DNA of 64,000 bases from Blastocatellia bacterium (GCA_963737945.1 CAVTUR010000030.1:22193-86192), one strand, 5' to 3'. Counted from the first letter of the stretch, positions 5,278 through 29,322 are shown. Program-made: numbers and translations. Notes: generated from the sequence alone by a model not told the origin.

Positions 5278-5429
5278 AGCATTCCCAATAGACCTTTAAC
5301 AAACACTGTAGAAGCTGCCAGAGGCTTCAGCCGGGTCTGCCCGCCCCTCCAAAGACCGAGCTTCGTCGCCAACTCCGCCCCAATGAAGCCGGGAACGGTT
5401 TGCGGGCTCTTGACGACAATTCGCACTTT

Positions 5430-5483: not shown

Positions 5484-5490
5484 GAGCACG

Positions 5491-5826: not shown

Positions 5827-5901
5827 AGGCCGCCACAAACTCAAACACTGTCGTTCACCCGATGCGGCCATTGCGATATACGACAATTAATGAGGCTATC
5901 A

Positions 5902-8990: not shown

Positions 8991-9250
8991 CTCGGAATCG
9001 AACAACGAGACTCACCTATCCACGTTTGAACGCTGCGGCTTCCACCTATCTGTCAACGTTTAGCGGACAAGCAACCGCTGGCACGATGATTGGTAGGTGA
9101 GGTCAGTCGTCTGGCCGGCGGCCACTATTGGTCTTTCAACTTTGAACCTCGAGACACATAGCTTTCTGGCGGCTAACACTTATGCGGCATCGAGCGTCTA
9201 CATCAAAGCGAAAAGGTAAATCTGCCATATCAGTGACTGGAGGATAGACG

Positions 9251-10386: not shown

Positions 10387-10609
10387 GTGGAAACGATTTT
10401 TCAAGATATTCGCTATGGGAGTCGCGTACTCCTGAGAAGACCTGCTCTTTTCACCATCATCGCGGTGGCAACGCTCGCGCTTGGCTAGGGGGAACACAGC
10501 GATCTCTAGCGTCGACGACGCGGTACTGCTGCGCAAGCTTCCTTATCCTGATGTGCCCGCACGCCGCGCAACCAGAGTTGATCCCATGGTCGCGCTTCGA
10601 TACGAATGA
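10387..10609 (+). pseudogene. internally deleted ADOP remnant (head fused to tail)
   Basis: GTG-ETIFQDIRYGSRVLLRRPALFTIIAVATLALG-TAG, a frameshift, then NTAISSVDDAVLLRKLPYPD joined directly to [21 protein letters not shown]. Confidence 0.9.
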
Positions 10610-10651: not shown

Positions 10652-13072
10652 ATGAATGGTTTATTTCAAGACGCGCGTTACGGCGTTCGCGTGTTGATCA
10701 AGACTCCTTCATTCACCGTGATCGCGGTGCTCGCCCTTGCGCTTGGCATCGGGGCGAACTGTGCCATTTTCAGCGTGGTGAATGCCCTGCTGATCAGACC
10801 CCTGGCCTATGGACAATCCGATCGTCTGGTAAAAATCAATCACAGGGACTCGACGTCCAGCGCCGACAACGCTGTTTCGCCTCCCGGCTTCGTTGATTAT
10901 CGAGATCAGAGCCACTCGTACGAGAGCATGTCCGCTGTTTACTTAGGCAACACGGCGTTGAACCTCAGCGAGCAGGGGGAGCCTGAGCGGCTTCAGGACG
11001 GACGCGTCTCGGCTAACTTTTTCACAACTCTCGGCGTCCGCCCAATGCTTGGTCGCGCGTTCGTTGCCGAAGAGGATCAGCCCGGGCGAAACCGCGTCGT
11101 AGTCCTCAGCCATAGTCTCTGGCAGAGGCGATTCGCCGGCGATCGTGATCTTGTTGGGAAAAACATCACACTCAATAGCCAGAGCTTTACGATCATCGGT
11201 GTGATGCCTGCCGGCTTTCGGTGGAAGGGCGATGATCTGTGGAGGCCGCTCGCGTTGGCTCCTGAGAGTTTCGCTCCGGATCAGCGCGGGAGTGAGTACC
11301 TCAGCGTTATTGCCCGGCTCAAACCGGACGTAACGGCTGAACAAGCTCAGTCCGAGATGGATGTGATCGCAGACACAATCCGGCAGAACAATCCCGCCTT
11401 TTATTCAGGGGACCCACACTGGGGGGTGGGGGTGACGCCGCTGCGCGAAGACGTTGTCGGCAGCATCAGGCCGGCTCTGCTGGTGCTGCTGGGCGCGGTT
11501 GGACTCGTGCTGCTGATAGCCTGCGCGAACGTCGCCAGCCTGCTGCTCGCCCGCGCAGCCACGCGACAAAAGGAGATCGCTATTCGTGCCGCGCTTGGCG
11601 CGAGCCGTTTCCACCTCGTACGCCAGTTGCTAGTCGAGAGCCTGCTGCTATCGCTGATCAGCGCCGGTCTGGGCCTGTTTCTTGCCGGCTGGGGTATCGA
11701 TCTGCTGGTGGCGATCGGGGGGAATAATATCCCGAGAGCCCAGGAAATAGGCATTGATGCACGAGTTCTCGGATTTACCGGCATGGTTTCGCTCCTGACC
11801 GCGCTGCTCTTCGGTCTGTTACCGGCAATACAGACCTCAAAGACCGATCTCCAGAGTATGCTCAAAGAGGGCGGACGCGGGTCGACCGGAGGCAGACGTC
11901 GCGCGCGCGCGCTGTTGGTCGTTGCCGATGTCGCGATGTCCCTTGTGCTGCTGATTGGCGCCGGTTTGCTCATAAAGAGCTTCGCACGGTTGGAAAATGT
12001 CAGCCCGGGATTTGCGCCTGAAGGTCTCCTGACGATGCAGGTGTCGCTGCCCGCTTTCAAGTACGGCGAGCCGAACCGGGTAAAAGCTTTTTACGATGGA
12101 GTGCTGGACGAGATCAGGTCCGTACCCGGCGTGCTATCGGTTGGCGCAGTTTCCGATTTGCCGTTGAGCGGTTCGGTCCACTCAGGCAGCTTCAACATTC
12201 AGGGTCGGACGATCGCCCCCGGCGAAGATGAGCTTCACGCGGACTTGAGATCGGCGACGCCGGAGTATTTTCAAACGATGAAGATCCCGTTGCTCCGAGG
12301 TCGTTTCTTCACCGAGCAGGACAACCGGGAGGCTCGTCCCGTGGCGATCATTGACGAGACACTGGCCCAGCACTACTTCCACGATGAAGATCCAATTGGG
12401 AAACACGTCGAGTTTCAACGAGGCAAACCGATTTGGCGGGAGATAGTGGGAGTCGTCGGGCACTTGAAGCACAAAGCTTTGGATGTCGAATTCAAGGATC
12501 AACTCTATGCGCCACACGCTCAGTTATCGAATTCAAATATGTTTCTGGTGGTGCGCGCGGCGAATGATCCGATGAGCCTGGCTTCATCGGTGCGCGCCGC
12601 TGTCAAAGCAATCGACAAAGACCAACCCGTTTACAAAGTGATGACAATGGAACAAGTCCTTGAGAATTCGCTGGCGCAAAGGCGACTGTCAGTAATTCTC
12701 TTAGGAGTCTTTGCCGCCGTGGCAATGGTGTTGGCGGCAGTCGGGCTTTACGGTGTGATTTCATTCTCGGTCACGCAGCGCACGAGAGAGATAGGGATCC
12801 GAATGGCGCTCGGAGCGGAGCGGCCCGACATATTCAAGATGGTGGTGAAGCAAGGCCTGACACTTGCTCTTGCTGGAGTTGGTCTTGGTCTGGTGGTCGC
12901 ATTCGCGCTAACCCGACTGATGTCAAGCCTGCTGTTCGGCGTTACTGCTACAGATCCGATGACATTTGCGGTGGTTCCTATGTTGCTTGCAGGAGTGGCC
13001 CTTGGAGCCAGTCTCGTGCCCGCACGCCGCGCAACCAGGGTTGATCCGATGGTCGCGCTTCGATACGAATGA
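10652..13072 (+). CDS. ADOP-type duplicated MacB permease (806 aa), array gene 1
   Basis: QDARYGVRVLIKTPSF, ALGIGANCAIFS, two MacB lobes, DPMVALRYE. RBS GGAGG. Confidence 0.96.
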   Translation: MNGLFQDARYGVRVLIKTPSFTVIAVLALALGIGANCAIFSVVNALLIRPLAYGQSDRLVKINHRDSTSSADNAVSPPGFVDYRDQSHSYESMSAVYLGNTALNLSEQGEPERLQDGRVSANFFTTLGVRPMLGRAFVAEEDQPGRNRVVVLSHSLWQRRFAGDRDLVGKNITLNSQSFTIIGVMPAGFRWKGDDLWRPLALAPESFAPDQRGSEYLSVIARLKPDVTAEQAQSEMDVIADTIRQNNPAFYSGDPHWGVGVTPLREDVVGSIRPALLVLLGAVGLVLLIACANVASLLLARAATRQKEIAIRAALGASRFHLVRQLLVESLLLSLISAGLGLFLAGWGIDLLVAIGGNNIPRAQEIGIDARVLGFTGMVSLLTALLFGLLPAIQTSKTDLQSMLKEGGRGSTGGRRRARALLVVADVAMSLVLLIGAGLLIKSFARLENVSPGFAPEGLLTMQVSLPAFKYGEPNRVKAFYDGVLDEIRSVPGVLSVGAVSDLPLSGSVHSGSFNIQGRTIAPGEDELHADLRSATPEYFQTMKIPLLRGRFFTEQDNREARPVAIIDETLAQHYFHDEDPIGKHVEFQRGKPIWREIVGVVGHLKHKALDVEFKDQLYAPHAQLSNSNMFLVVRAANDPMSLASSVRAAVKAIDKDQPVYKVMTMEQVLENSLAQRRLSVILLGVFAAVAMVLAAVGLYGVISFSVTQRTREIGIRMALGAERPDIFKMVVKQGLTLALAGVGLGLVVAFALTRLMSSLLFGVTATDPMTFAVVPMLLAGVALGASLVPARRATRVDPMVALRYE

Positions 13073-13075
13073 AAT

Positions 13076-13158
13076 TGATTTGCGATTGCCGATTTGCGGT
13101 TGCCGATTTCGGCTTACTCGACTTGGTTCTCGAACACGCAGTCGGCAATCGCAAATCA
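13076..13158. repeat. inverted GATTGCC/GATTTGC heptamer array (element A)
   Basis: GATTTGC GATTGCC GATTTGC GGTTGCC from 13077. Perfect 17-bp inverted repeat TGATTTGCGATTGCCGA (13076-13092) / TCGGCAATCGCAAATCA (13142-13158). Confidence 0.9.
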
Positions 13159-13172
13159 GAACGGATGAAATT

Positions 13173-15611
13173 ATGGAAACTTTGTGGCAGGACCTGCGGT
13201 ACGGATTTCGGATGCTGACGAAGAATCCGGGCTTCACCGCGATCGCGGTGGTCTCGCTGGCGCTTGGGATTGGGGCGAACACCGCGATCTTCAGTGTGGT
13301 GAACGCGGTATTGCTGAAGGGACTACCGTTTCACGACTCGGAACGGCTGGTGATGGTTTGGGAGGATGCGTCGTTCGCCGGTTTCCCCCGAAACACTCCC
13401 GCGCCGGCTAACTATGCCGATTGGAAGTCTCGAAGTGACGCCTTTGAGGACATGGCCGCGGTAGCTCGACGGAGCTTCAATCTGACGGGCGACGGCGAGC
13501 CCGAGCGGATCGAAGCGTATGCGGCTACTGGTAGTTTCTTTTCGCTGCTCGGCACCGACCCGGTCTTAGGCCGTACCGTTCTCCCGGACGACGACACGCC
13601 CGAGGCCAACAAGGTGGTAGTGCTCAGCTACAAGCTCTGGCGGCAACGGTACGGCGGCGACGCAGCCGTCATCGGCAGGGAGGTGCTCCTTAGTGGTGAA
13701 AAGCACACGATCGTAGGTGTGATGCCCGCTCGATTTCAGTTTCTTGAAAGCGATATCCAGGCGTGGGTGCCGATGGCGTTCACGCCAGACCAACTGGCAC
13801 AACGCGGCTCTCATTACCTTCAGGTAGTCGCACGGGTGAAGCCGGGGGTTTCGACGGAACAAGCAAACGCGGAGATTCAGTCGATCCAGCGACAGATCGC
13901 TCAGGACCATCCCAACGCAGCCGGCCGCATATCGGCTTATGTGATGCCTCTACATGATCAGGTGGCGGGTGACATTCGCCGGCCGCTGTTGGTGCTGCTG
14001 GTGTCGGTGGGTTTCGTCTTGCTGATCGCTTGCGCGAACATCGCCAACCTGCTCCTCTCGCGCGCAGCCAGCCGGCAACGTGAGATAGCGGTGCGCTCGG
14101 CCCTGGGCGCCAGCCGCCTTAGAATCATCCGGCAATTGATTACCGAGGGGGTGGTTCTGTCGATCTCCGGCGCGGCGCTAGGGGTTTTGCTGGCGCTGGA
14201 GAGTTTCGCGTTCTTGAGCCGTTTGATCCCGGACTCGCTGGCTATTTCGACAAGCCTGAGTCTCGACATGAAGGTTCTCGGATATACCCTGTTGGTATCG
14301 CTTGCCACTGCCGTTATCTTCGGACTTGCGCCGGCTGTTCAGGCGGCGAGAGTCGACCTGAACGAAGCTTTGAAACAGAGCGGCGGCCGGTCGGGGCTGA
14401 GCGCCGGAGGCAACAGGTTGCGAAGCTCGATGGTGGTGGCCGAAGTCGCGCTGGCGTTGGTGTTGCTGGTGGGTGCCGGGCTACTGATTCAGACATTCGT
14501 GAACCTGCGCGCTCCGTATTCCGCTATGCGTCCCGAAAACGTGTTGGTGTTACGAACTCAACTCTCCTCCAGCAAGTATCGCGACCAGCCTCATCGCGCC
14601 GCCTTTTACAGCCAGGTCCTCGAGCGCGTGACCGCCCTGCCCGGTGTCGTGTCGGCAGGCTATACAAATTCAGTTCCTCTCGATTGGAAAGGCGGCACCA
14701 GCGGCTTCTATCCGGAAGGTCTGACGATGGATCAGGCGCGCGCGGGTGGTTTATCTTACGACGCAAATCATCGCCAGGTGAGCTCGGATTACCTGAAGAC
14801 AATGGGCATACCCCTAAAACAGGGGCGTAGTCTGGAGGATCGGGACAACGAGCTGGCGATCCCCGTCGCCCTCGTCAACGAAACTATGGCCCGCCAATAC
14901 TGGCAGGGAGAAGCGCTCGGCAAACGCTTCAAACTCGGCGACCCCGATGAACCGATACCCTGGATCACCATCGTCGGGGTGTGCGGCGATATCCGGCAGA
15001 TGGGAGTCGACGAACCGGTCAAGGCAGAGATGTATCTGCCGTACAGACAGATCAAGGACCATCAGTTCTTTGCGCCGCGCGATCTGGTCTTGCGCACCGC
15101 AGGGGATCCGGTGAACCTGGTCGCCGCGGTACGCGACGAAATTCACGCGATCGATCCGGATCAACCGATCTCGAACGTTCGAACGATGGATGAGGTGTTG
15201 GGCGAGGAAACAGCTTCCCGGCGCTTAGGCATGACCCTGTTGACGGTATTCGCGGCTCTGGCTTTGCTGCTGGCCGCTCTTGGTATCTACGGAGTGCTCG
15301 CATACTTCGTAGTGCAGCATACACCTGAGATCGGGGTAAGGGTCGCGCTGGGCGCCCCTCGCTCCGGCATCCTTGCACTGGTGTTGAAGAAAGGGATGAC
15401 CTTGGCTCTCCTGGGAGTCGCTACGGGTTTGGGCGCTTCGTTCGCCTTAACCAGGCTGATGGCAAGCCTGTTGTTTGGTATGAGCGCAACCGATCCGGGC
15501 ACCTTTGTGATGGTGGCATTGCTGCTGGTCGCAGTGGCATTGGTCGCGTGTTACTTGCCCGCGCGAAGGGCGACCAAGGTAGATCCGATGATCGCGTTGA
15601 GATACGAATGA
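13173..15611 (+). CDS. ADOP-type duplicated MacB permease (~812 aa), array gene 2
   Basis: True start [21 protein letters not shown] at 13173; two lobes; DPMIALRYE. Confidence 0.96.
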   Translation: METLWQDLRYGFRMLTKNPGFTAIAVVSLALGIGANTAIFSVVNAVLLKGLPFHDSERLVMVWEDASFAGFPRNTPAPANYADWKSRSDAFEDMAAVARRSFNLTGDGEPERIEAYAATGSFFSLLGTDPVLGRTVLPDDDTPEANKVVVLSYKLWRQRYGGDAAVIGREVLLSGEKHTIVGVMPARFQFLESDIQAWVPMAFTPDQLAQRGSHYLQVVARVKPGVSTEQANAEIQSIQRQIAQDHPNAAGRISAYVMPLHDQVAGDIRRPLLVLLVSVGFVLLIACANIANLLLSRAASRQREIAVRSALGASRLRIIRQLITEGVVLSISGAALGVLLALESFAFLSRLIPDSLAISTSLSLDMKVLGYTLLVSLATAVIFGLAPAVQAARVDLNEALKQSGGRSGLSAGGNRLRSSMVVAEVALALVLLVGAGLLIQTFVNLRAPYSAMRPENVLVLRTQLSSSKYRDQPHRAAFYSQVLERVTALPGVVSAGYTNSVPLDWKGGTSGFYPEGLTMDQARAGGLSYDANHRQVSSDYLKTMGIPLKQGRSLEDRDNELAIPVALVNETMARQYWQGEALGKRFKLGDPDEPIPWITIVGVCGDIRQMGVDEPVKAEMYLPYRQIKDHQFFAPRDLVLRTAGDPVNLVAAVRDEIHAIDPDQPISNVRTMDEVLGEETASRRLGMTLLTVFAALALLLAALGIYGVLAYFVVQHTPEIGVRVALGAPRSGILALVLKKGMTLALLGVATGLGASFALTRLMASLLFGMSATDPGTFVMVALLLVAVALVACYLPARRATKVDPMIALRYE

Positions 15612-15613
15612 AA

Positions 15614-15780
15614 GGATTTTGGATTTTAGATTTTGGATTTTGGATTGCCCGTGTGCCGGGACCCTTATCGAACCGGGGGCGGTCCGCAATCCAAAATCCA
15701 AAATTCTCGCAGGTGCCGGGACCCTTATCGAACCGGGAGCAGTCCGCAATCCAAAATCCAAAATCTAAAATCCAAAATCC
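15614..15780. repeat. inverted GGATTTT heptamer array with internal 60-bp-period duplication (element B)
   Basis: Perfect 35-bp inverted repeat at 15614-15648 / 15746-15780. A 52-bp direct repeat at 15653-15704 and 15713-15764 has 2 mismatches. Confidence 0.95.
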
Positions 15781-15795
15781 CAGTAGGGGGATAAC

Positions 15796-18219
15796 ATGAA
15801 AGAACTTACCCAGGACATTCGCTACGGTTTTCGTATGTTGAGCACGAGACCCGGCTTCACCATCGTCGCAGTCATTGCGCTGGCGCTCGGGATCGGTGCA
15901 AACACCGCGATCTTCAGCCTGATCAACTCGGTGTTGCTGCGTCCGCTGCCGTATCCCGAGCCCGACCGGCTGGTAATGCTCGAAGAGAGCGAGAAGGACG
16001 GCAAGAGTTCAACTACCTCCTACGCGACAAGCAAAGACTGGCGCGAACGAAGCCAGACCTTCGAGAGTATTTCGGTCGTCAGAGACTGGAGCATCACTCT
16101 TACCGGCGCGGGCGAGCCTGAGATGCTGCAAGGGATGCGGGTGTCGGCAAACTATTTTGGCACCCTCGCGGTAAAGCCAGCTCTGGGCCGCGAATTCCTG
16201 CCTCAGGAAGACACCCCGGCAACCCGGCGCGTAGTCATCCTGAGCGACGGGCTGTGGCGACGCCGCTTCGGATCGGATGCCGATATCGTCGGGAGGCCGA
16301 TCGCGCTTGGCGGACAGACTTTCACCGTCGCCGGAGTGATGCCCAGGGGTTTTGAGGATCTTGTTTCGGCGCGCCTGTACCAAACGGCCGATTTGTGGGC
16401 GCCGCTGGGCTACGATGAAACCCTCCCCTGGGCCTGTCGCACCTGCCGGCACATTCAAGCCATTGCTCGCCTCAAACGCGGGGTGTCCCTTGAACAGGCG
16501 GGCGTGGAGATGAACGCAATCTCGCAGAATCTCATCGTCGAGCATCCGAAGGACTACGCTTTCGCGGGAGTAACAATCATTCCGTTGCTGGATAAATTCG
16601 TGGGGGCGGTGCGTCCGGCATTGTACCTGTTGCTCGGAGCGGTCGGTCTGGTGCTGCTGATCGCTTGCGCGAACGTCGCCAACTTGCTGCTGGCCCGGGC
16701 GACACAGCGTCGAAAAGAGATTGCGATCCGGTCAGCACTCGGAGCACGTCGCAGCAGAATAGTGCGGCAGTTGTTAACCGAGAGCACAATGCTCTCCCTG
16801 CTTGGCGCGGCATTGGGGCTGGCGCTGGTCTGGTGGAGCCTCGAGCTGCTGGCCGCGTTCAGCCCGCCAACTATTCTCCGGCTCAACGAAGTGAACGTCG
16901 ATGCGCGAGTGCTCGGATTCACCCTCGCGCTCTCGCTGCTCACCGGCATCATCTTTGGCCTTGCGCCGGCGCTTCAAGCCTCGAAGCTCGATCTCAACGC
17001 GGCGCTCAAGGAAGGCGCTCGGGGTGCTGGGGGCGGCGGCGGGCATCGCCTGCGAAATCTGCTGGTTGTCTCGGAGATCGCCCTGGCGCTGGTTCTGATG
17101 GTTGGCGCCGGACTGCTGGTTAGAAGTTTCCTGCGGGTGCTCGATGTCACTCCCGGTTTTGAGCCGTCCAACGTCATAACCATGAACGTCTCGGCGAACG
17201 GAACGAGATACGCAGAGGAGGCGGACGTTCGCGCTTTCTACGATGAAGTCATCAATCGCGTAGGCCACCTCCCGGGGGTGGAGGCCGCGGCCGTTGTCAG
17301 TAATCTGCCGCTCGGCGGCAACAAGGACATGTACGGGTTTCACATTGAGGAAAAGCCGCTCGCAAATCCCGAGGAGGCGCCCAGTGTCGAGCGCTATGTG
17401 GTCAGCCCCGGCTACCTGCGCGCGATGCGAATTCCTCTGCTTGCCGGCCGTGAGTTCAATGATCACGATGCGCCAAACGCGCCCCCCGTAGTCTTGATCA
17501 GCGTCTCTACCGCGGAGAGCATCTGGCCAGGAGAAGACCCGATCGGCAAGCGCGTGAGAATGGGGGGCATGGAAGGCCCGCTGCGCACCATCGTCGGTAT
17601 TACCGGCAACGTGAGTCATTATGCGTTGGACACACCGCCCGATTTGCAGGCCTACGTTCCGGAAGCGCAGTGGACAAACTCGGACCTGCAGCTAGTCGTG
17701 CGATCTCCCATCGATCCGAAGGCTCTGATGGAAGCGGTGCGCAACGAGATCTGGGCCGTGGATAAAGACCTGCCGATCTACAGCGTGGCGACGATGGAGC
17801 AATTGGTGTCCGCCTCAGTCGCGCAGCGGCGGTTCATAGTAATCTTGCTGGCACTGATGGCAGGACTCGCGGCGACCCTTGCGGCACTCGGAATCTACAG
17901 TCTGATGTCCTATTCAGTAACCCAGCGAACCCAGGAGCTTGGAATTCGAATGGCGCTGGGGGCTCAGTCAAACGATGTCCTCAGGCTTGTCGTCGGACAA
18001 GGCATTCTGCTTGCGATGGCCGGCATTGGTGTGGGGTTGGTTGCATCGGTGGCGTTGACGCGGGTGATGTCCAGTATGTTGTTTGGGATTGGAGCAACCG
18101 ATCCGCTTACGTTCACGGTCATCTCGCTGGCAGTGGCCGGAGTGGCTCTGGGGGCCAGTTTTGTGCCGGCCCGAAGGGCGACAAAAGTGGATCCGATGGT
18201 CGCGCTGAGATGCGAATGA
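15796..18219 (+). CDS. ADOP-type duplicated MacB permease (807 aa), array gene 3
   Basis: QDIRYGFRMLSTRPGF, two lobes, DPMVALRCE. Confidence 0.96.
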   Translation: MKELTQDIRYGFRMLSTRPGFTIVAVIALALGIGANTAIFSLINSVLLRPLPYPEPDRLVMLEESEKDGKSSTTSYATSKDWRERSQTFESISVVRDWSITLTGAGEPEMLQGMRVSANYFGTLAVKPALGREFLPQEDTPATRRVVILSDGLWRRRFGSDADIVGRPIALGGQTFTVAGVMPRGFEDLVSARLYQTADLWAPLGYDETLPWACRTCRHIQAIARLKRGVSLEQAGVEMNAISQNLIVEHPKDYAFAGVTIIPLLDKFVGAVRPALYLLLGAVGLVLLIACANVANLLLARATQRRKEIAIRSALGARRSRIVRQLLTESTMLSLLGAALGLALVWWSLELLAAFSPPTILRLNEVNVDARVLGFTLALSLLTGIIFGLAPALQASKLDLNAALKEGARGAGGGGGHRLRNLLVVSEIALALVLMVGAGLLVRSFLRVLDVTPGFEPSNVITMNVSANGTRYAEEADVRAFYDEVINRVGHLPGVEAAAVVSNLPLGGNKDMYGFHIEEKPLANPEEAPSVERYVVSPGYLRAMRIPLLAGREFNDHDAPNAPPVVLISVSTAESIWPGEDPIGKRVRMGGMEGPLRTIVGITGNVSHYALDTPPDLQAYVPEAQWTNSDLQLVVRSPIDPKALMEAVRNEIWAVDKDLPIYSVATMEQLVSASVAQRRFIVILLALMAGLAATLAALGIYSLMSYSVTQRTQELGIRMALGAQSNDVLRLVVGQGILLAMAGIGVGLVASVALTRVMSSMLFGIGATDPLTFTVISLAVAGVALGASFVPARRATKVDPMVALRCE

Positions 18220-18222
18220 AGA

Positions 18223-18400
18223 CGATTTTGGATTTTAGATTTTGGATTTTGGATTACCTACGTATCGGAATCGTCGATTTTGGATTTTGGATTTTGGATT
18301 ACCCGTGTACCGGATCGTCGATTTTAGATTTTAGATTTTGGGATTTTGGATTGCCCACGTACCGGGATGGTCAATCATCCAAAATCTAAAATCCAAAATC
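18223..18400. repeat. GGATTTT heptamer element with three left arms and one right arm (element C)
   Basis: Units start at 18223, 18275 and 18319. Each is a run of (G/A/C)GATTTT heptamers, then GGATT(A/G)CC..GTA.CGG.AT.GT. The right arm is ATCC AAAATCT AAAATCC AAAATC at ~18377-18400. Confidence 0.93.
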
Positions 18401-18418
18401 ACACTCAGAGGGAAAAAG

Positions 18419-20866: not shown

Positions 20867-20873
20867 GAAACCG

Positions 20874-23800
20874 ATGACAAACTTATGGCAAGACGTTCGC
20901 TACGGATTCAGGATGCTTCGGAAGCATCCGGGGTTTAGCGCCATTGCGATTGTGACGCTGGCCATGGGTATCGGCGTCAATACGTCGATTTTCAGTATCG
21001 TTAATGCGCTGTTGTTGCGCCCGATACAATTCAAGGACTCGGATCGGCTGGTTCTGTTTTGGAACCACTATCCGGGATTGGAGATCCCGCAGGACTGGCT
21101 TTCGCCCGGCGAATACACCGACGTGAAAGCCCAGTCGGATGTGTTTGAAGAGATGACGATCGCCAACGGCGGAAGCATCAACCTCAACGACGCCGGTGCT
21201 CCTGAGCGAGTCGAAGGCATTCGGGCGTCCTCGAGTTTCTTTTCATTGTTGAATATTCAACCTGTTCAGGGCCGCGCCCTGCTGCCGGACGAAGACGAAC
21301 CGGGCAAGCCGCCCACTGCCGTCATCAGCCACCGGTTGTGGCAGCGTCGATTCGGCGCAGATCCTAACTTCGTCGGCAAGACGATCTCGCTCAATGGCCA
21401 GCCGACGACAGTTGTAGGCGTTCTTCCTGCGAGCCTCTCTCTCGATAAGGAGATGCTGCCTACGGTCGCGGGGATTGAACGGGTCGATGTCATACGGCCA
21501 CTTGCCCTGGACGACGAAGACAGAAGCAATCACGCAAGTGATAACTACACTGTTATGGCACGCCTCAAACCCGGCGTTTCGATGGGCGAGGCGCAAGTCC
21601 AGGTCGACACGATAGTCGCGCGGCTCCAGCTGGCGTATCCGAAGAGTTACCCAGCAACCAGCGGATTCGCGGTAGGCGTGGTTCCGATGCTCGAGCAAGT
21701 CGTGGGCGGTGCCCGGCCCGCCGTTCTGATGTTGTTTGTGGCGGTCGGGTTCGTGTTACTCATTGCCTGCGCGAACGTCGCCAACTTGCTTCTTGCGCGA
21801 GCAGTCGGGCGAGAAAAAGAGTTTTCAATTCGCACCGCTCTCGGGGCAGGGCGTCTGCGCCTCATTCGCCAGTTGCTCGTCGAAAGCATGTTGCTCACGC
21901 TTGCGGCGACGTTAGCGCTGGGCATAGGCGCCAACACCGCGATCTTCAGCGTGGTCAATGCGATGATGCTAAAACCGCTTCCCTATTCGGACCCGACTCG
22001 GCTGGTTTCGGCAGGCTCGGTAAACAGTCTGAATCCGCAAGGTGAGGTCGATGGAGTATCGCCGGCGGATTTCTGGGACTGGAAGGATCAGAGCACGTCG
22101 TTTGAGCAACTCGCCGCTCTATCTGGTGGCGGCGGATTCAGCTTAAAAGACGCGGATCAACCGGATGTCTTCAGTGGCGCACGAGTGTCCTTCAATTTCT
22201 TTCAAACCTTTGGTGTGCAGCCGCTGCTGGGCCGTGCCTTCTCCGCCGAAGACGGGCAGCTCCACGCGCCCGAAACTGTAGTGTTGAGTCACAGGCTCTG
22301 GATGCGACGCTTTGGCGGTGACCCGGCGGTCGTTGGAAAGACTTTCAACAACGCTGACGGCGGTACGACGGTGATCGGAGTGATGGCGCCCGACTTCAAC
22401 TTTCCAAGCTACGCCGACGTATGGGTACCGCTCGCGCGCAACTCAGGCGAGATGCGCAACCGGTCCAATCGCTACTTCAGTGTTGTTGGAAGGATCAGAG
22501 CCGATCAGTCGATTGAAAGCGCCGAAGCTGAGCTTGAGACCATCGCCAGTCGATTGGAGGCCGAGCACCCGCAAGCAAACAGGGGATGGACCGCGCACCT
22601 GACGCCGCTGCGAGACAATGTGATGGGTAGCGTGAGGACTGCGCTGTTCGTGCTGCTGGGTGCGGTCGGTTGTGTCCTGCTCATCGCGTGCACAAACGTC
22701 GCGAATCTGCTGCTCGCTCGCGCGGCGTCGAGGCGGAGGGAGATGGCGATTCGGCTCGCGCTCGGCGCCGGCCGCGCCAGGATCATGAGGCAGTTGCTCA
22801 CCGAAAGCCTGGTGCTTGGCATCGCGGGCGGCGCCATCGGGTTGGCGTTTGCAGTGTGGGGTCTGGACCTGCTGATCGGAATTCTGCCCTCCAGGGAGGC
22901 ATTCCAACTCCCGGTCGAGATCCGCATCGATCGAATGGTCATGTTGTTGACCCTTGCCGTCTCGGCCCTCACCGGGATTGTGTTTGGCCTCGTCCCCGCA
23001 TGGCAGGCGTCACGGCCCGATGTTGGCGAGTGGCTGAAAGAAGGCGACCGCTCTGGATCGAGCGCCGGTCACAAGCGAACTCGCAGCGCTCTGGTCGTCG
23101 CTGAAATTGCTATTGCTCTTGTCTTGCTTGTCGGCGCCGGGCTGCTTGTCCAAAGCTTCGTCAGGTTGAGACACGTTGATCTCGGATACGACCCGATTGG
23201 TCTGATGACGATGTGGGTGCCGGCGTCGCCAGCCAGATATCCCGACAATGAAACTAAGGCGCGGTTCTATAAGCGGCTCCTCGAACGGGTTTCTCAAGTT
23301 CCCGGCACAGAAGACGTCGCGTTGAGCTCGGCGCCGTGGTTCGGCTTTCTCAATTTTCAATTCAACATCGCTGACGAAACGTTGCCGGCCGGCGATGCCA
23401 CCGTTCGTTACAGCTCAATCGCCCCGGACTACTTCAGGGTGCTCAGAGCTCAAGTTCGCTCCGGTCGCGATTTCGATGATCGGGATGACAGCAGAGCTCC
23501 GAGCGTCGCAATCATCAATGAAGCTCTTGCGCGGCGGTACTTCCCGGAGGGCAGTCCGATCGGAAGAAGGATTGTGATTGGGTATCTTGGCCGCAGATTG
23601 ACACCCGAGATAGTTGGCGTATCGGCGGACATCAAACAAGAGGAATTGGGGGCGCCAACAAAACCCGAAGTATACGTTCCATATCAGCAGGTCCCCTGGC
23701 TGGGAGCAGCACTAGTAATTCGCGCTGCGAGGGGTGACCCGATGACCCTAAAGAAAGACCTGCAGCAGGCGATTTGGGAAGTCGACAAGGACCTTCCGGT

Positions 23801-24242
23801 TTCCGAGGCGTCAACGGTCGAGGGGCACCTGTCGGATCTCGTGGCCGAGCCTCGGCTGTACACGTTGCTGCTCGGTGCGTTCGCGACTGCCGCGTTGATT
23901 CTTGCCTCGATTGGGATCTACGGTGTTATGTCGTATTCGGTAACCGAACGTACACGCGAGATAGGCATTCGCATGGCGTTGGGTGCGAAGCGTCTGGATG
24001 TGCTTACGTTCGTGGTGAGGCAGGGTTTGTTACTGGCGGTGACTGGCGTGGCGATCGGCGTTGTGTTGGCTTTCGCGTTGACTAGAGTGATTTCGAGCCA
24101 GCTGTACGGCATCTCTGCCACCGACCCGTTGACCTTTACATTGATACCGTTGCTGCTTGCATCGGTGACCGTGGCGGCCTGTTTTGTGCCGGCGCGTCGC
24201 GCAACGAAAGTCGATCCGATGATCGCACTGCGATGCGAATGA
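20874..24242 (+). CDS. chimeric ADOP permease (1122 aa; half unit fused to a near-complete unit), array gene 5
   Basis: Contains the head motif twice (MGIGVNTSIFS near residue 30 and [11 protein letters not shown] near residue 348) and [15 protein letters not shown] twice. The junction reads RQLLVESMLLTLAA|[14 protein letters not shown] at ~21897-21915. Confidence 0.92.
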   Translation: MTNLWQDVRYGFRMLRKHPGFSAIAIVTLAMGIGVNTSIFSIVNALLLRPIQFKDSDRLVLFWNHYPGLEIPQDWLSPGEYTDVKAQSDVFEEMTIANGGSINLNDAGAPERVEGIRASSSFFSLLNIQPVQGRALLPDEDEPGKPPTAVISHRLWQRRFGADPNFVGKTISLNGQPTTVVGVLPASLSLDKEMLPTVAGIERVDVIRPLALDDEDRSNHASDNYTVMARLKPGVSMGEAQVQVDTIVARLQLAYPKSYPATSGFAVGVVPMLEQVVGGARPAVLMLFVAVGFVLLIACANVANLLLARAVGREKEFSIRTALGAGRLRLIRQLLVESMLLTLAATLALGIGANTAIFSVVNAMMLKPLPYSDPTRLVSAGSVNSLNPQGEVDGVSPADFWDWKDQSTSFEQLAALSGGGGFSLKDADQPDVFSGARVSFNFFQTFGVQPLLGRAFSAEDGQLHAPETVVLSHRLWMRRFGGDPAVVGKTFNNADGGTTVIGVMAPDFNFPSYADVWVPLARNSGEMRNRSNRYFSVVGRIRADQSIESAEAELETIASRLEAEHPQANRGWTAHLTPLRDNVMGSVRTALFVLLGAVGCVLLIACTNVANLLLARAASRRREMAIRLALGAGRARIMRQLLTESLVLGIAGGAIGLAFAVWGLDLLIGILPSREAFQLPVEIRIDRMVMLLTLAVSALTGIVFGLVPAWQASRPDVGEWLKEGDRSGSSAGHKRTRSALVVAEIAIALVLLVGAGLLVQSFVRLRHVDLGYDPIGLMTMWVPASPARYPDNETKARFYKRLLERVSQVPGTEDVALSSAPWFGFLNFQFNIADETLPAGDATVRYSSIAPDYFRVLRAQVRSGRDFDDRDDSRAPSVAIINEALARRYFPEGSPIGRRIVIGYLGRRLTPEIVGVSADIKQEELGAPTKPEVYVPYQQVPWLGAALVIRAARGDPMTLKKDLQQAIWEVDKDLPVSEASTVEGHLSDLVAEPRLYTLLLGAFATAALILASIGIYGVMSYSVTERTREIGIRMALGAKRLDVLTFVVRQGLLLAVTGVAIGVVLAFALTRVISSQLYGISATDPLTFTLIPLLLASVTVAACFVPARRATKVDPMIALRCE

Positions 24243-24245
24243 ACT

Positions 24246-24305
24246 GATTGCCGATCGGCAATTGCCGATTGCCGATTGAAGGAGAAATCCCTGGCATTCG
24301 GCAAT
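24246..24305. repeat. GATTGCC heptamer array with degenerate inverted arm (element D)
   Basis: GATTGCC GATCGGC AATTGCC GATTGCC GATTGAA (24246-24280); GGCATTC GGCAAT (24293-24305). Confidence 0.8.
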
Positions 24306-24316
24306 ATAAGGGGACT

Positions 24317-26776
24317 ATGGAAACACTTTGGCAGGACTTGCGTTACAGCGCCCGAATGTTAGTAAAGAACCCTGGCTTTACCCTGATCGCCGTGATCACG
24401 CTGGCGTTGGGTATCGGCGCGACGACGGCAATTTTCAGCGTGGTCAACGGCGTCCTGTTGCGTCCGCTCGACTATCACGATCCTCAACAAATCGTCACGC
24501 TCTTGCACAAAGGACGAAGCCCGGTCTCTCCGGCGAACTTTATGGACCTCCGCGCCAGTAGCCAGAGCTTCGAGTTGATGGCGGCCGCGGAGGCATGGGG
24601 CGGCACCCTCGCAAGCGATGACCGGCCGGAAGCCGTCAGCGGGCTGCGGATGGGCGATGGTCTTTTTGATTTGCTCGGCGTTCAGCCTTTGTTGGGTCGG
24701 ACCTTGCGAGCCGAAGACTTCGAGCCCGGCAAAGATCATGTGCTGGTGCTCAGCCACAAGCTCTGGCAGCGTGCGTTTGGCGGCGACCCTTCGGTCGTCG
24801 GAAGACCTCTTGCGCTGAGCGGCGAACCCTATACCGTGGTTGGCGTGATGCCGCCACAGTTTCAATTCCCTCCGTTCTGGTCGACGCGCGCCGAGTTGTG
24901 GGCCCCGCTCGATTTGAGCAATCGCGCAACCAGCCGCGGCGGCAATTCATTGCGAGTGTTTGCCCGACTCAAACCCGGCGCAAGCCGGACCCAGGCTCAA
25001 GCTGAGATAGACGCGATCAACATTCAACTCGCCCACGCCTACCCGGACCAAAACACCGGGCTCGACATCCGGGTAGACCCGTTGAACGAGAAAGTGGTCG
25101 GCAACGTTCGTCCGGCCCTGCTGATCCTCTCGGGCGCGGTTGGATTTGTGTTGTTGATCGCCTGTGCGAATGTAGCTTGTTTGCTGCTGGCGCGCGCGGC
25201 AACCCGGCAGAAGGAAACCGCGGTGCGAGTCGCACTCGGCGCAACGCGCCGGCGCATCCTGAGACAGTTGTTGACCGAAAGCCTGCTGCTTTCTTTGTGC
25301 GGTGCGGCAGTCGGGATACTCGTGGCGGAGTGGGGTGTAGAATTGCTGACGGCGCTGCTGTCGGGCAACAGCTCCAGCTTCAGTGTTCGTTTGCCGCGGT
25401 TGAACGAGGTCAAGATTGATGCGGGGACGCTCGGCTTCACCTTCACGGTTTCGCTGGTGACCAGCGTGCTTTTTGGTCTTGCCCCGGCGCTCAGCGCGTC
25501 AAAACCGGATCTGAATCAGGTGCTCAAAGAGAGCGGGCGCGGGACGACTGGCGGACGCCGCCGGTTGCGCGAAACACTGGTCGTGGCCGAACTCGCGTTG
25601 GCGCTGGTGATGCTGATTGGCGCCGGGCTGCTGATGACCAGCTTCGTAAGGCTGCAATCGGTTGATCCCGGCTTCAACCCTCAAAAGCTGCTAACGATGA
25701 CAACGTCGCTGGCTGGCGCTTCGCAATACGTAGGGCCGGCGCGCGAGGCCTTTTACCAGCAACTGACGGATCGGCTGACCGCCCTGCCCGGCGTCGAGTC
25801 GGCTAGCGCCGTCAATCATCTGCCGCTTGCCGGTGATGTATGGGGAACTACGCTCGCAATCGAAGGGCGTCCGTTGGCGGCGCCCGGAGAGAGCATCGTC
25901 GCCGCCTTTCGCGTGAGCCGCCCGGACTACTTTCGAACGATGGGTATCCAGTTGAGCGCCGGGCGAGATTTCACCCAGCGCGACACTCCTGAGGCCCCTG
26001 GCGTGGTAATCCTCAACGAAACGCTGGCCCGGCGTTACTGGCCTGCCGAAGACCCCTTAGGCAAACGGATCACACTCGACGATCCCCGCGGCACGACGAA
26101 AACGCCGGAATGGCTCACCATTGTAGGCATGGTGAAGGACGTCAAACAGGAAAGCTGGACGGATGCGCCGTCAAATGAGATTTATTTGCCGTTCCAACAG
26201 AGTGGAGGGTTCTACAGCGGTGTGGCCAGGCAGTTCACCTCAATGACGATTGTCGTGCGCACGACGGTCGAACCGCGCGGTCTGGCGGCCGCGGTCCAGG
26301 ATACGGTCAGGACATTCGATCGCGCCATGCCGGTCTCCAATGTCATGAGCATGGAACAGGTGATTGCTGACGCTCTCTGGCAGCCGCGTTTCAATTTGCA
26401 GTTGATCGGGTTGTTCGCAGGCCTTGCGCTGGTGCTGGCAGCCATAGGGCTTTACGGAGTGATGTCGTACTCGGTGGCCCAGCGCACACACGAGGTGGGT
26501 TTGCGAATGGCGCTGGGCGCCCAGCGGGCCGACGTGATAACACTCGTCCTGAGGCAGGGCATGAAGCTGACCGTGGTAGGGGTGGCTCTCGGCTTGTTTG
26601 CGTCTGTGGCGCTGACTCGGCTGATGGCGAATCTGCTGTTCGGAGTGAGCGCAACGGACCCGAGGGTCTTTGGGGTCATCGCGCTGATACTCGTGGGCGT
26701 CGCGCTGCTTGCCTGTATTGTGCCCGCGCATCGCGCGACGAGGGTCGATCCGATGGTAGCGCTGAAATATGAATAA
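24317..26776 (+). CDS. ADOP-type duplicated MacB permease (~819 aa), array gene 6
   Basis: True start [21 protein letters not shown] at 24317; two lobes; DPMVALKYE. Confidence 0.96.
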
Positions 26777-26779
26777 AGA

Positions 26780-26874
26780 GATTGACGATTGCCGATTGGC
26801 GATTGCCGATTGAAAGAAGAAGCGTGATCTATCTTCAATCGCAAATCGGCAATCGGCAATCGCGTATCGGCAAT
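26780..26874. repeat. inverted GATTGCC heptamer array (element E)
   Basis: Five left heptamers at 26780-26814 (GATTGAC GATTGCC GATTGGC GATTGCC GATTGAA). Right arm TTCAATC GCAAATC GGCAATC GGCAATC GCGTATC GGCAAT. Confidence 0.92.
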
Positions 26875-26886
26875 GGGAGGAAATCA

Positions 26887-29322
26887 ATGGAAGCACTGTG
26901 GCAAGACTTGAAGTACGGAGCCCGAATGCTCGCCAAGAGCCCGGGATTCACATTGGTCGCCGTAATTGCGTTGGGTCTGGGTATCGGCGCAAACACCGCA
27001 ATCTTCAGCGTGGTGAACGCGGTTCTGATTCGCTCGCTTCCATTCCGTAATCCGGACCGTCTCGTCATGGTGTGGGAAAACAACCGCCCGCGGGGCCGTG
27101 ACCAGAACGTCATCTCCCCCGCAAACTACCAGGACTGGCGTGATCAAAACACGGTCTTCGATTCGATGGCAGCGATGTTCGACTCTCGCACAAACCTGAC
27201 CGGGGTTGACGATCCCGAGGAATTGGCGACACAGCTGGTTGAGCCTAACTTCTTCGATCTGCTTGGCACCAGTGCCGCGCTCGGTCGGACGTTTAACCTC
27301 GACGAAGGCCAACCGGGAAAGGATCAGGTAGTCGTATTGAGCCAGGGGTTATGGAAGCGCCGTTTTGGTGGCGACCCGGGGATCGTCGGCAAAGCCATAA
27401 AGCTCGGCGGCAGAGACTTCACCGTCGTAGGCATCGCACCGTCGGGTTTGCAGTTGATTATTCGACAAGGTTCCCTCACCGGAAAACAGGCGCAGTTGTG
27501 GATGCCCCTGGGATTGAGCCCGGCCTCACGAGTGCGTCGCGGTCGTTCCATCATGGCGATCGCGCGACTCAAACCGGGAGTAACGCTAGGGCAAGCGCAA
27601 GCCGAGATGGACGGTATCGCCGCACATCTCGAACAGCAGTATGTGGACTTTAATACCGGTTGGGGCGTGAACCTTGTCCCTTTGCAAGATCAGCTGGTCG
27701 GTGCGATTCGTCCCGCGTTGCTGGTATTGTTGGGAGCGGTCGCTTTTGTATTGTTAATCGCATGTGCAAATGTCGCAAATCTGCTGCTGGCGCGCGCGGC
27801 CACCAGACAGAGAGAGATAGCGATTCGCACCGCTCTTGGCGCCGGGCGAGGGAGAATCGTTCGCCAGTTGCTCACTGAGTCAACTGTGCTCGCGGCGTTT
27901 GGAGGATTGCTGGGTTTGTGGCTGGCGATGTGGGGAGTCGACTTGCTGCTTGCTCTGACCCCCAAGGACCTGACCGGGTTGAAGGATGTCGGGATCGATT
28001 ACCGGGTGCTCGGGTTCACAATGGCTGTTTCGGTCTTGACTGGAGTGCTGTTTGGTCTTGCTCCAGCCCTCGAAGCATCGCGGCCGAATCTAAACGAGTC
28101 GTTGAAGGAGGGTGGCCGGGGAGCGGTAACCGGCGGGCGCAGTCATCGCTGGCGTAGCGTGTTCGTTGTTGTAGAAGTCGCTTTGGCGATGGTGTTGCTT
28201 ATCGGCGCGGGGTTGATGATCCGGAGTTTCGCACGCTTGCAATCGGTGGATCCGGGCTTCGACTCGAAGAACCTTCTCACGGTGCGGCTTCTTTTGCCCT
28301 CCTCCAAGTACGGTCAGGATAGTCAACTACTAGGTTTCTTCAAACAACTTGTGGAGCGTTTGCAGTCGCTGCCTGGGGTTCGTTCGGCCGGAGCAATAAG
28401 CGTACTGCCTTTTGGCAGCGGCGGAGCGGCGACCAGCATCGAGGTCGAAGGCCGCCCGGCGCCGCCCCCCGGTCAGGATCTGGTGGGCGACGTGCGTGTA
28501 GTCGATGGGGGTTACTTCGGCACGATGGGGATTCCGCTGTTGCAGGGACGGACTTTCACCGAGCGGGAACTGGCTCAGGAGACGCACGTGGTGATCATCA
28601 ACGAGGCGATGGCGCGCGAGTTTTTCCCTGGGGAAGATCCGATCGGCAAGCGGGTAACCATCGCTATGAAGAAGGAGAACGTCCCAAACGAAATCATCGG
28701 GGTGGTTCGCGATGTGAGACACAAGGATTTGGAGACTCCGGCGCGAGCGATGACCTACTGGCCTTATCCGGAGCTCACCTATTCGGGGCTGACGCTGGTG
28801 GTGCGAACGGAGTCTGAACCGCTCGCACTTGCGGATGCAATACGCCGAGAGGTTCTGGCGCTGGACAAGGACCAGCCGATCGCCGACATAAGCACTATGG
28901 AACACCTGCTTTCGGACTCGGTGTCGGGCGCACGCTTCAGCACGATGTTACTGAGCGTTTTCGCCGGGTTGGCGCTGTTGCTGGCGGCGGTGGGGATCTT
29001 TGGTGTGATGTCTTACGGGGTGTCGGAACGCACTCACGAAATCGGGGTGCGAATGGCATTGGGCGCGCAGGCTTCGCACGTGCTCGCGCTGGTTGTACGA
29101 CAGGGGATGGTCCTGACTCTGGTCGGGATAGTGATCGGATTGGTAGCTGCCTTCGGGGTAACGAGGGTCATGGCCAGTTTGCTGTATGGAGTGAGCCCGA
29201 CCGATCCGCTGACGTTTGCGGCGATCTCGGTGCTGTTGGCATCCGTCGCGCTGTTGGCAAGTTATCTTCCCGCGAGGCGGGCGACCAAGGTTGATCCAAT
29301 GATAGCGCTGCGATACGAGTGA
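26887..29322 (+). CDS. ADOP-type duplicated MacB permease (~811 aa), array gene 7
   Basis: True start [21 protein letters not shown] at 26887 after GGGAGG; DPMIALRYE. Confidence 0.96.

Follow-up and report, generated by a model that had tools for sequence, protein, structure and literature searches.

Seven tandem ADOP permease genes in an acidobacterial genome and a candidate shared motor encoded in trans

Seven co-oriented ADOP permease genes (A1-A7) occupy positions 10652-29322 on the + strand of a window (the whole 64,000-nucleotide stretch analysed here) from a soil acidobacterium. The array they form is unremarkable within its known family, and a shared motor offers an explanation that can be tested. 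According to this explanation, A1-A7 are probably alternative membrane/periplasmic modules of a common ATPase-plus-adaptor motor which is encoded in trans on contig C8, the link between motor and array being drawn wholly from genomic context. In soil Acidobacteriota, few paralogous families are larger than the ADOPs, which number dozens per genome and, ever since their family was first described, have been labelled 'orphan, function unknown'. If one conserved motor and one regulon do serve them, the family becomes experimentally tractable: one motor could be knocked out rather than 40 permeases, and the motor co-expressed with single permeases could reveal their substrates. Such a many-to-one organisation would be unusual for an ABC transporter. 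The gain for the array itself is modest, as it would simply be a motor-detached ADOP array.

All seven genes match TIGR03434 (model length 803 positions) at 995-1328 bits, well above the cut-off of 622 bits (622.3), in agreement with the preliminary description of seven co-oriented ADOP frames. With start codons refined by the conserved M-x-x-L-x-Q-D-L-R-Y-G head, the permeases are A1 (10652..13072, 806 aa, 1043 bits), A2 (13173..15611, 812 aa, 995 bits), A3 (15796..18219, 807 aa, 1015 bits), A4 (18419..20866, 815 aa, 1007 bits), A5 (20874..24242, 1122 aa), A6 (24317..26776, 819 aa, 1010 bits), and A7 (26887..29322, 811 aa, 1070 bits), and all frames are open over 806-1122 codons. Model positions 1-803 are spanned by every member except A5, which covers 21-803 and carries an extra half unit. 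Each ORF has two MacB_PCD and two FtsX matches in Pfam, and A5 has three of each. The latter is a 1.5-unit chimera in which ~333 residues of one ADOP, comprising TM1, PCD, TM2, the coupling helix, and the start of TM3, are fused, in frame, to a complete ADOP at its TM1. Profile searches of the ORFs between A1 and A7 returned no match to PF00005, HlyD, outer-membrane factor, or regulator families, which bears out the reported absence of these partners inside the array; likewise, the Pfam search found no PF00005 domain in any window ADOP.

The array is one of several co-oriented ADOP arrays in the genome and part of a longer run; the window has ten ADOPs in all, and the genome about 38 intact copies. 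The earlier count of seven is right, but the run is longer and includes a chimera, a scar, and PadR-ADOP units upstream. Two such units lie on the + strand at 2167..5277 (PadR 2167-2502, ADOP 2632-5277; TIGR03433 126 bits, NF038403 61 bits) and 5383..8697 (PadR 5383-5826, ADOP 5890-8697; 149 and 64 bits, respectively), and the ADOPs of both carry a perm_prefix_1 N-terminal domain. The scar (10387..10609, +, 223 bp, read from the sequence) joins a gene head to a gene tail with the interior deleted, and its tail (10553-10609) is identical to that of A1 at 55/57 nt vs 35-46/57 for other copies. Downstream, the tenth ADOP, A8 (32309..34813, +, TIGR03434 958 bits), is preceded by a beta-lactamase-fold/TPR gene and a cyclase gene. 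Large paralogous ADOP families are known in Acidobacteria, and Psychroflexus torquis has a 42-kb cluster of ten ADOP paralogs (PMC3914696). The present genes share with the family (TIGR03434) the full-length matches, internal duplication, tandem clusters, TIGR03433-type PadR neighbours, and an ATPase-free array; as no structural difference from the family exists, the array is a further example of it.

The AF2 model of A7 (pLDDT 84, pTM 0.76) has eight TM helices and two alpha/beta periplasmic domains. It follows the layout of type VII units (four TM helices, of which TM1 and TM2 enclose a large periplasmic domain and TM2 and TM3 a coupling helix), and as modelled the ADOP chain is two fused MacB-type (type VII ABC) permease units with two major and two minor coupling helices. 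Foldseek ranks YbbP (9GE6, E 1e-21) first and then MacB, with a probability of 1.0 for YbbP, MacB, LolC/E, BceB, and HrtB, and sequence matches in the PDB reach MacB at E about 1e-22. Like YbbP, an ADOP is a single polypeptide of two MacB-like units with two Porter/Sabre periplasmic domains and two coupling helices; each of these helices would, as in YbbP, dock one copy of an ATPase that has its own gene. In contrast to the 10 TM helices and two linker helices of YbbP, there are eight TM helices in the ADOP model and a cytoplasmic, disordered/low-confidence linker at residues 401-417, and matches of NF041854 (YbbP) to the window ADOPs are negligible. Moreover, YbbAP is single-copy with an adjacent ATPase, a TesA partner, and no adaptor, whereas ADOPs exist as very many paralogs and have links to two ATPase types and a HlyD adaptor. 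MacAB-TolC (PDB 5NIK, 5LIL, 5GKO) shares the TM/periplasmic fold, the coupling-helix and C-terminal motifs, and an assumed mechanotransmission, and ancestral-looking ADOP operons have an adaptor (MFP) gene as well. However, MacB forms homodimers and has an NBD fused to it at the N-terminus, while the ADOP is a fused pseudo-heterodimer chain devoid of one.

Among 35 paralogs, the N-helix, TM1, TM2, both coupling helices, and the C-terminus are the best conserved parts (2.95-3.4 bits, vs 2.1-2.2 bits in the PCDs), and the coupling motifs EIAIRxALGA and EIGIRMALGA are kept. In MacB and YbbP, it is the coupling helices and the C-terminal minor helices that dock the NBD. These cytoplasm-facing elements are alike in A1-A7 and in the ADOPs of contig C21 that adjoin an ATPase.

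The candidate motor locus (C8:468.6-474.7 kb) has the order ATP1-MFP-ATP2-RR-HK, in which ATP1 and ATP2 are MacB-type ATPases, MFP is a HlyD-type adaptor (the three at 468.6-471.5 kb), RR is a response regulator of the sigma-54 activator type, and HK is a histidine kinase. There is no FtsX-type permease within 6 kb of the locus, and the flanking ORFs look unrelated. The HTH part of the regulator is seemingly frameshifted in the assembly, its alignment covering residues 1-343 only, and the kinase sequence reads as two N-terminal TM helices with a loop of only about 9 residues between them. BceAB-BceRS modules (PDB 7TCG, 8G4C), which sense and detoxify antimicrobial peptides, likewise have a single-chain FtsX-type permease with an ATPase made separately, a two-component system at their locus, and a kinase almost without extracytoplasmic loop. 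Nevertheless, BceB differs from the ADOPs, with 10 TM helices vs eight and a single extracellular domain vs two periplasmic ones, the Bce regulator is of the OmpR type rather than a sigma-54 activator, and on the ADOP side a kinase is found only at the distant motor locus.

Among 201 Acidobacteriota genomes, 79 have both ADOP and the ATP2-type ATPase, 4 have ADOP without ATP2, 1 has ATP2 without ADOP, and 117 lack both (Fisher p = 8e-50, uncorrected for phylogeny). In these profiles 4-14 candidates were scored per genome, a cap by which some matches may have been missed. The pattern persists within families and within one genus (G022 vs G084). In the low-copy genomes G119, G041, G073, G097, G144, G049, G062, and G182, a co-directional ATP2 gene directly precedes the ADOP at a distance of 27-531 bp, and an ATP2-type ATPase also adjoins an ADOP on C21 of the present genome. 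Whole operons are seen in relatives, for example MFP-ATP2-ATP1-ADOPx4 (G019), MFP-ATP2-ADOP-ATP1-RR-HK (G023), MFP-ATP2-ADOPx2 (G021), and MFP-ATP2-ADOPx7 (L101); a HlyD-family MFP is present in the ADOP operons of these four and of G022, and in the window there is none. Across the genus, ATP2 is mostly 95-99% identical (87-90% in two genomes), compared with 60-88% for ADOP orthologs and 74-87% for the MFP beside ATP2. ATP1 is missing from 26/83 ADOP-positive genomes, again among 4-14 candidates scored in each, and hence ATP1 and ATP2 are unlikely to act everywhere as an obligate heterodimer.

The same evidence bears on a different explanation, in which ADOPs are autonomous, NBD-less envelope sensors or receptors that act by ligand binding, signalling, or protection without ATP, along the lines of the surface sensors suggested in the preliminary description. 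The lack of an ATPase gene in the array and the divergence of the periplasmic domains, the most variable parts of the proteins, would suit such a role, as would the short loop of the C8 kinase, which recalls BceS-type kinases. The latter sense through a transporter. This explanation is nonetheless unlikely: conservation across all 35 paralogs is highest in the helices expected to dock an NBD, one ATPase type tracks ADOP presence almost perfectly and is adjacent in low-copy genomes, and profile searches show no signalling domain fused to the window ADOPs.

A rare promoter variant of the sigma-54 type may connect the motor locus to the array. This element, TGGCACGATGATTGGT (TGGCAC-N5-TTGG, 9079..9094, +), has no second exact copy in the window, and a near-palindrome, TTGGGAAACCCTTTCTCGG (8977..8995, +), situated some 95 bp before its -24 element, is a candidate enhancer. 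A TGGGA(A)..T(T)CCCA-like palindrome occurs ~90 bp upstream in 4/5 ADOP-system promoters of the genome, which suggests an enhancer role. The motif has 10 copies in the 7.3-Mb genome, five of which head ADOP-system units, including the motor locus and the site at 9079 (Poisson p about 2e-5), and in 90 related loci 20/24 copies are intergenic and precede ADOP or MFP genes of the same strand. Since the same variant heads both, motor and array may be induced together. The genome has rpoN; however, sigma-54 dependence is an assumption because the -12 element is TTGG instead of the canonical TTGC. Between the 9079-9094 site and A1 are 1.57 kb with a very stable hairpin, the scar, and one gene, the first after the promoter, for a secreted DUF4097/LiaG-like protein (9251..10168, +; PF13349 weak, E 3.7e-4; signal-peptide-like N-terminus) that has no paralog in the genome. 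A single transcript might conceivably run from this promoter through the structured spacers. Taken with the phylogenetic profile and the operons of relatives, the motif qualifies the word 'orphan', common to the family name and the preliminary description: it holds locally for the array, but probably not at the level of the system, for which conserved ATPase/adaptor partners and a common promoter motif are identified here from context.

With a shared motor, ATP1, ATP2, and the HlyD-type adaptor from C8 would serve the array ADOPs. The docked ATPase dimer would hydrolyse ATP and, by mechanotransmission via the stalk helices, drive the paired periplasmic domains, which would expel or extract substrate from the periplasm or outer leaflet in a MacB-like manner, the substrate range of each paralog being set by its own pair of domains. 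An extended version ('one motor, many heads') is more tentative, although possible. Here, ~40 interchangeable ADOPs would draw on one ATP1/ATP2 pair plus adaptor, the kinase/activator would sense envelope stress or, in the manner of Bce systems, transport flux, and co-induction through the lineage-specific TGGCAC-N5-TTGG promoter and TGGGAAA..TTTCCCA enhancer would provide a combinatorial, substrate-specific library.

A nearer ATPase also has to be weighed. The left edge of the window holds two single MacB-type permeases, ending at 1751, whose own MacB-type ATPase (C30:20414-21199) lies just beyond it, and this ATPase, rather than the distant C8 locus, might drive the array. It shares the strand of the array and lies 3.5 kb before the run's first ADOP and 11.6 kb before A1; the order ATPase-permease-permease-ADOP-ADOP is found again in L097, and arrays are flanked by single permeases in L047, L091, and L094. 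Such a local drive is improbable, as the ATPase is just ~47% identical to ATP2, already has two cognate half-permeases, is not of the type that co-occurs with or adjoins ADOPs across the phylum, and lies outside the unit headed by TGGCAC-N5-TTGG. The motor at C8 is the preferred candidate.

The members of the array differ most in the parts that would set substrate range. Mean pairwise identity among A1-A7 is 56-66% in the TM/cytoplasmic blocks vs 39% in PCD1 and 36% in PCD2, so that the described contrast between conserved membrane and divergent periplasmic parts, and the repertoire of distinct paralogs, are both upheld. The ADOP paralog tree is star-like (median tip length 0.72) with the window copies scattered, which indicates that the copies are ancient paralogs, older than the genus, and not recent duplicates. 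The only sister paralog of A2 within the window is A4 (61% identical), and the tree sister of A1 is C21:36905, an ADOP adjoining an ATP2-type ATPase. Array content is not fixed among relatives. The array of the closest congener, G005, is A4-A5-X-A7, with X 46% identical to any window copy, and G008 has only A5 and A7 in common with the window. The A4 ortholog in G005 is 82% identical; those of A5 (G005 80%, G008 75%) are normal ADOPs of 803-804 aa without the extra N-terminal module, for which no ortholog was found (best match 47%). A6 is a lineage-specific slot without an ortholog in six congeners (best match 54%), and A7 has orthologs at 88, 70, and 63%. These comparisons indicate a turnover of array members from species to species, by way of loss, replacement, and deletion-fusion.

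Turnover of this kind, the chimera and scar, and the low periplasmic identity could be taken for signs of an arms race in which positive selection or gene conversion is actively diversifying the periplasmic domains. This is very unlikely. Between orthologs, the TM blocks have a dN/dS of 0.05-0.15 and the periplasmic domains one of 0.08-0.21, with no 30-codon window above 0.55, and the paralogs predate the genus; A1-A7 are intact and under purifying selection throughout, and nothing points to diversification still under way. Furthermore, MacB-type proteins as a rule have a lower identity in the PCD; the two periplasmic domains of YbbP, for instance, are 26% identical to each other (PMC12646458). 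That most ADOP copies are decaying, non-functional duplicates is the least credible proposal, since the ~10 split or fragmentary ADOPs of the genome (mostly at C6:47-75 kb) and the scar and chimera of the window are set against seven open frames, an ortholog dN/dS of about 0.1, and abundant ADOP proteins in P. torquis (PMC3914696).

The spacers of the array are merely 7-199 bp. A hairpin of GATTGCC-type heptamers fills 13073..13172, and similar ones lie at 15612-15795, 18220-18418, 24243-24316, and 26777-26886 (MFE -26 to -78 kcal/mol). Heptamer arrays number 228 in the genome, just 11 of them near ADOPs, and are a genome-wide habit.

The seven co-oriented genes A1 (10652-13072), A2 (13173-15611), A3 (15796-18219), A4 (18419-20866), A5 (20874-24242), A6 (24317-26776) and A7 (26887-29322), all on the forward strand, encode ADOPs, the duplicated MacB-type permeases of TIGR03434. 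A family scan of the window ORFs gave full-length TIGR03434 matches of 995-1328 bits (cut-off 622) for all seven, with two MacB_PCD (periplasmic) and two FtsX domains apiece, and three of each in A5; the starts were set by the conserved head M-x-x-L-x-Q-D-L-R-Y-G. The spacers of 7-199 bp are gene-free. As the preliminary description stated, the array is devoid of genes for an ATPase, an adaptor, an outer-membrane factor or a regulator, a point that the ORF listing and family scans bear out. The idea of hidden PadR genes in three small ORFs (10374-10655, 15548-15799 and 32092-32421) was rejected, as none of them matched any family.

As a case of a named family the array is unremarkable, and arrays of this kind are commonplace. 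The window spans C30:22193-86192 of a 7.3 Mb genome (33 contigs), which carries ~38 intact and ~10 broken ADOPs, with arrays larger than that of the window on contigs C10 and C6, and co-oriented runs of at least four copies were found in 41 of 77 ADOP neighbourhoods of related genomes. The window holds ten ADOPs in total. Two belong to PadR-coupled units at 2167-5277 (ADOP 2632-5277) and 5383-8697 (ADOP 5890-8697), and are the only ones in the window with perm_prefix_1 (NF038403, cytoplasmic, ~80 aa); the tenth lies at 32309-34813. Solo ADOPs in related loci are usually PadR-coupled (14/77 loci), and PadR coupling looks like a second regulatory mode, separate from that of the promoter-headed arrays. 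Between A7 and the tenth ADOP (29454-32005) are genes for a beta-lactamase-fold protein with C-terminal TPR repeats, which has a 72% counterpart in the congener G008 and is missing at the corresponding place in the congener G005, and for a putative cyclase (PF04199). Directly behind the last ADOP, a DUF433/DUF5615 toxin-antitoxin-like pair (34973-35637) has overlapping stop and start.

An AF2 model of A7, built on a 47-sequence alignment (pLDDT 84; pTM 0.76), predicts eight TM helices and two alpha/beta periplasmic domains, the halves being linked by a putatively disordered cytoplasmic stretch at residues 401-417. In the PDB the closest fold was that of E. coli YbbP (9GE6, E 1e-21); MacB, Spr0695, LolC/E and BceB came next. 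YbbP consists of type VII permease units fused into a pseudo-dimer with 10 TM helices, whose two coupling helices bind two copies of a separate ATPase (PMC12646458). The ADOP differs from it in being a direct 8-TM fusion, and the fused permeases listed in a 2018 review of MacB all have two linker helices (PMC5985334).

The papers found to name the ADOP family give neither a partner nor a function. A census of ABC ATPases found ten MacB-type nucleotide-binding domains in the genome. One of these, at C21:35956-36693, is followed 212 bp downstream by an ADOP pair whose first gene is a sister of A1. Its paralog, ATP2 (C8:470768-471505, 86% identical), belongs to a putative motor locus (C8:468453-474735) conserved across the genus, which comprises a second MacB-type ATPase (ATP1, C8:468593-469255), an HlyD-family adaptor (MFP), ATP2, a sigma-54-activator response regulator (RR) and a histidine kinase (HK). 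No FtsX-type permease was found within 6 kb of it. The C-terminal HTH of the RR appears frameshifted in the assembly, and the HK has two TM helices with a connecting loop of ~9 residues.

In related genomes these same components are joined to ADOPs in single operons. For example, the order is MFP-ATP2-ATP1-ADOPx4 in G019, MFP-ATP2-ADOP-ATP1-RR-HK in G023, MFP-ATP2-ADOPx2 in G021, MFP-ATP2-ADOPx7 at locus L101 and ATP1-MFP-ATP2-ADOPx2 at L051. Likewise, the single ADOP of G022 stands in MFP-ATP2-(1.4 kb)-ADOP, and the ADOP arrays of L055, L075, L105, L113 and L115 are followed by RR-HK(-ATP1). In the low-copy genomes G119, G041, G073, G097, G144, G049, G062 and G182, the ADOP follows ATP2 on the same strand at a distance of 27-531 bp. 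Across one fixed set of 201 Acidobacteriota genomes, with 4-14 candidates scored per genome, the ATP2 type was present in 79 ADOP-positive genomes and absent from 4, and present in 1 ADOP-negative genome and absent from 117 (Fisher p = 8e-50, uncorrected for phylogeny). The pattern was kept within families and within one genus, where G022 has both and G084 neither. Among the candidates scored, 57 of the 83 ADOP-positive genomes had an ATP1, as did 3 further genomes; ATP1 is common, not universal. These observations establish that ADOPs are linked in genomic context to ATP2, ATP1 and MFP.

The conservation of the proteins points in the same direction. Across most of the genus ATP2 keeps 95-99% identity, falling to 87-90% in two genomes, against 74-87% for the MFP beside it and 60-88% for ADOP orthologs; conservation this high fits a protein under constraint from many partners. 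Conservation among 35 ADOP paralogs peaks in the cytoplasm-facing elements, namely the N-helix, TM1, TM2, both coupling helices and the C-terminal helix, and they are alike in the ATPase-adjacent ADOPs of C21 and in A1-A7. It is therefore rather probable that the ADOPs are served by a shared set of ATP2, ATP1 and MFP. The two coupling helices of each ADOP would serve as docking sites for a dimer of ATPases, whose ATP-driven closure would pass via the stalk helices to two unlike periplasmic domains, and these would expel or extract a substrate, through the adaptor where used, the substrate differing from paralog to paralog.

The preliminary description had read the array as an orphan receptor array; the array is real, and this reading of it is only partly right. 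That the ADOPs are sensors lacking a nucleotide-binding domain partner would agree with the ATPase-free interior of the array, and is unlikely given that ADOP presence tracks ATP2 closely and that ATP2 adjoins the ADOP in low-copy genomes. Equally doubtful is service of the array by the neighbouring ATPase at C30:20414-21199. This gene lies just outside the left edge of the window, on the same contig as the array, and is the cognate of two single-unit MacB-type permeases at that edge; the ATPase type recurring beside ADOPs in other genomes is ATP2.

A promoter-like motif further ties the shared set to the arrays. The canonical sigma-54 form TGGCAC-N5-TTGC is no commoner in the window than chance predicts, and it is missing from the 400 bp ahead of every ADOP in the genome; only a variant, TGGCAC-N5-TTGG, with a non-canonical -12 element (TTGG), is associated. 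It has 10 genome copies, five of which head ADOP-system units: one at the motor locus, 140 bp before ATP1; one in the window (9079-9094), 157 bp before a DUF4097-like gene (9251-10168) that lies ahead of A1-A7; and two on C10 and one on C18, each before a gene followed by ADOPs. Upstream of ADOPs, ~0.15 copies were expected and four seen (Poisson p 2e-5). In 1.59 Mb of related loci, 20 of 24 copies were intergenic and on the same strand, most of them 58-223 bp ahead of an ADOP or MFP gene; the G019 and G021 operons have such a site before their MFP. At four of the five ADOP-system sites, the -24 element is preceded at ~90 bp by a TGGGA(A)..T(T)CCCA palindrome (window 8977-8995). The genome has rpoN. 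From these motifs we infer that the motor-locus activator may drive both the motor and the arrays. A concrete, testable candidate partner and regulon for A1-A7 is the useful result. The lead genes behind the motif vary from array to array; those at C10:123733-125864, C10:133286-134470 and C18:18102-19395 code for a secreted protein of beta-lactamase fold, a REC+PP2C response regulator with a receiver much like that in the motor-locus RR, and a repeat protein that is also secreted.

The window ADOPs are old paralogs. Their pairwise identity is 36-61%, and in a star-like tree of 60 ADOPs (median tip length 0.72) they are scattered, with 10 label changes per 10 copies. A2 and A4 are the only sister pair among them, and their split is older than the divergence from G005, the closest congener. 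Recent tandem duplication is ruled out by this identity range, the lack of a clade and the age of the A2/A4 split. Among A1-A7, mean identity is 56-66% in the TM and cytoplasmic blocks, 39% in PCD1 and 36% in PCD2. Selection was assessed by NG86 on ortholog pairs (A4, A5 and A7 against G005; A5 and A7 against G008; A7 against the congener G013), per domain and in 30-codon windows. The dN/dS was 0.05-0.15 in the TM blocks and 0.08-0.21 in the periplasmic domains, and no window exceeded an omega of 0.55; the test is coarse, dS being 0.6-1.2 for the G005 pairs and saturated for remoter ones. At that resolution the periplasmic domains show no sign of positive selection or of ongoing diversification. 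Purifying selection is uniform; constraint on these domains is weaker, as usual in the MacB fold. An arms race, which the low PCD identities might have suggested, is hence very improbable.

The preliminary description had set a diversifying repertoire against fixed array content under uniform purifying selection; the selection is indeed uniform, and the content is not fixed. The G005 array is A4-A5-X-A7, X being 46% identical to any window copy, the 12-copy array of G008 shares only A5 and A7 with the window array, and G013 shares only A7. No A6 ortholog was found in six congeners (closest 54%). A5 itself is a 1.5-unit chimera of 1122 aa, in which residues 1 to ~333 of one ADOP are joined in frame to TM1 of a complete ADOP. 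The extra N-terminal module spans TM1, PCD, TM2, the coupling helix and the start of TM3, giving 10 predicted TM helices and three periplasmic domains; the topology stays consistent because TM3 and TM1 both run from inside to outside. G005 (80%) and G008 (75%) have orthologs of A5 that lack this module and are ordinary ADOPs of 803-804 aa, so the fusion is lineage-specific; no ortholog of the module was found, the closest match being 47%. Between the DUF4097-like gene and A1, an ADOP scar (10387-10609) retains ~33 codons of the head and 16 of the tail; ~2.2 kb of interior is gone. Its tail and that of A1 agree in 55 of 57 nt, and this match points to a deletion or recombination with A1 or a near-copy in the recent past. 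The unfixed membership, the scar and the chimera together imply birth-and-death turnover of ancient, individually conserved genes. General decay of the copies, to which the scar and the broken ADOPs might be ascribed, is the least credible explanation beside the purifying selection on the orthologs. The identity, fold class, age, selection regime and turnover of A1-A7 are thus established.

Nearly every spacer is a long hairpin with stems of tandem heptamers (GATTTTG or GATTGCC and complements). Those at 13073-13172, 15612-15795, 18220-18418, 24243-24316 and 26777-26886 lack a T-tract and fold with an MFE between -26 and -78 kcal/mol, and sigma-70-like promoters and intrinsic terminators in the spacers were not above shuffled expectation. 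Heptamer arrays (exact, at least three copies, many different units) number 228 genome-wide, and with 11 of these near ADOPs they are a genome-wide class of intergenic element, ruled out as ADOP-specific cassette boundaries. Similarly, a 30-nt inverted repeat (90%) brackets the array at 10288-10317 and 29360-29389. It is part of a dispersed REP-like CGCAAAGA element with 59-141 copies genome-wide, elements of this type flanking the array at 10220-10335 and 29360-29389. The repeat is consequently ruled out as evidence of a mobile cassette, and the bracketing is probably incidental. Elsewhere in the window, the reverse strand encodes a P-type ATPase with seven HMBD heavy-metal-binding repeats (41598-44399) and a 2578-aa open frame (55228-62964).
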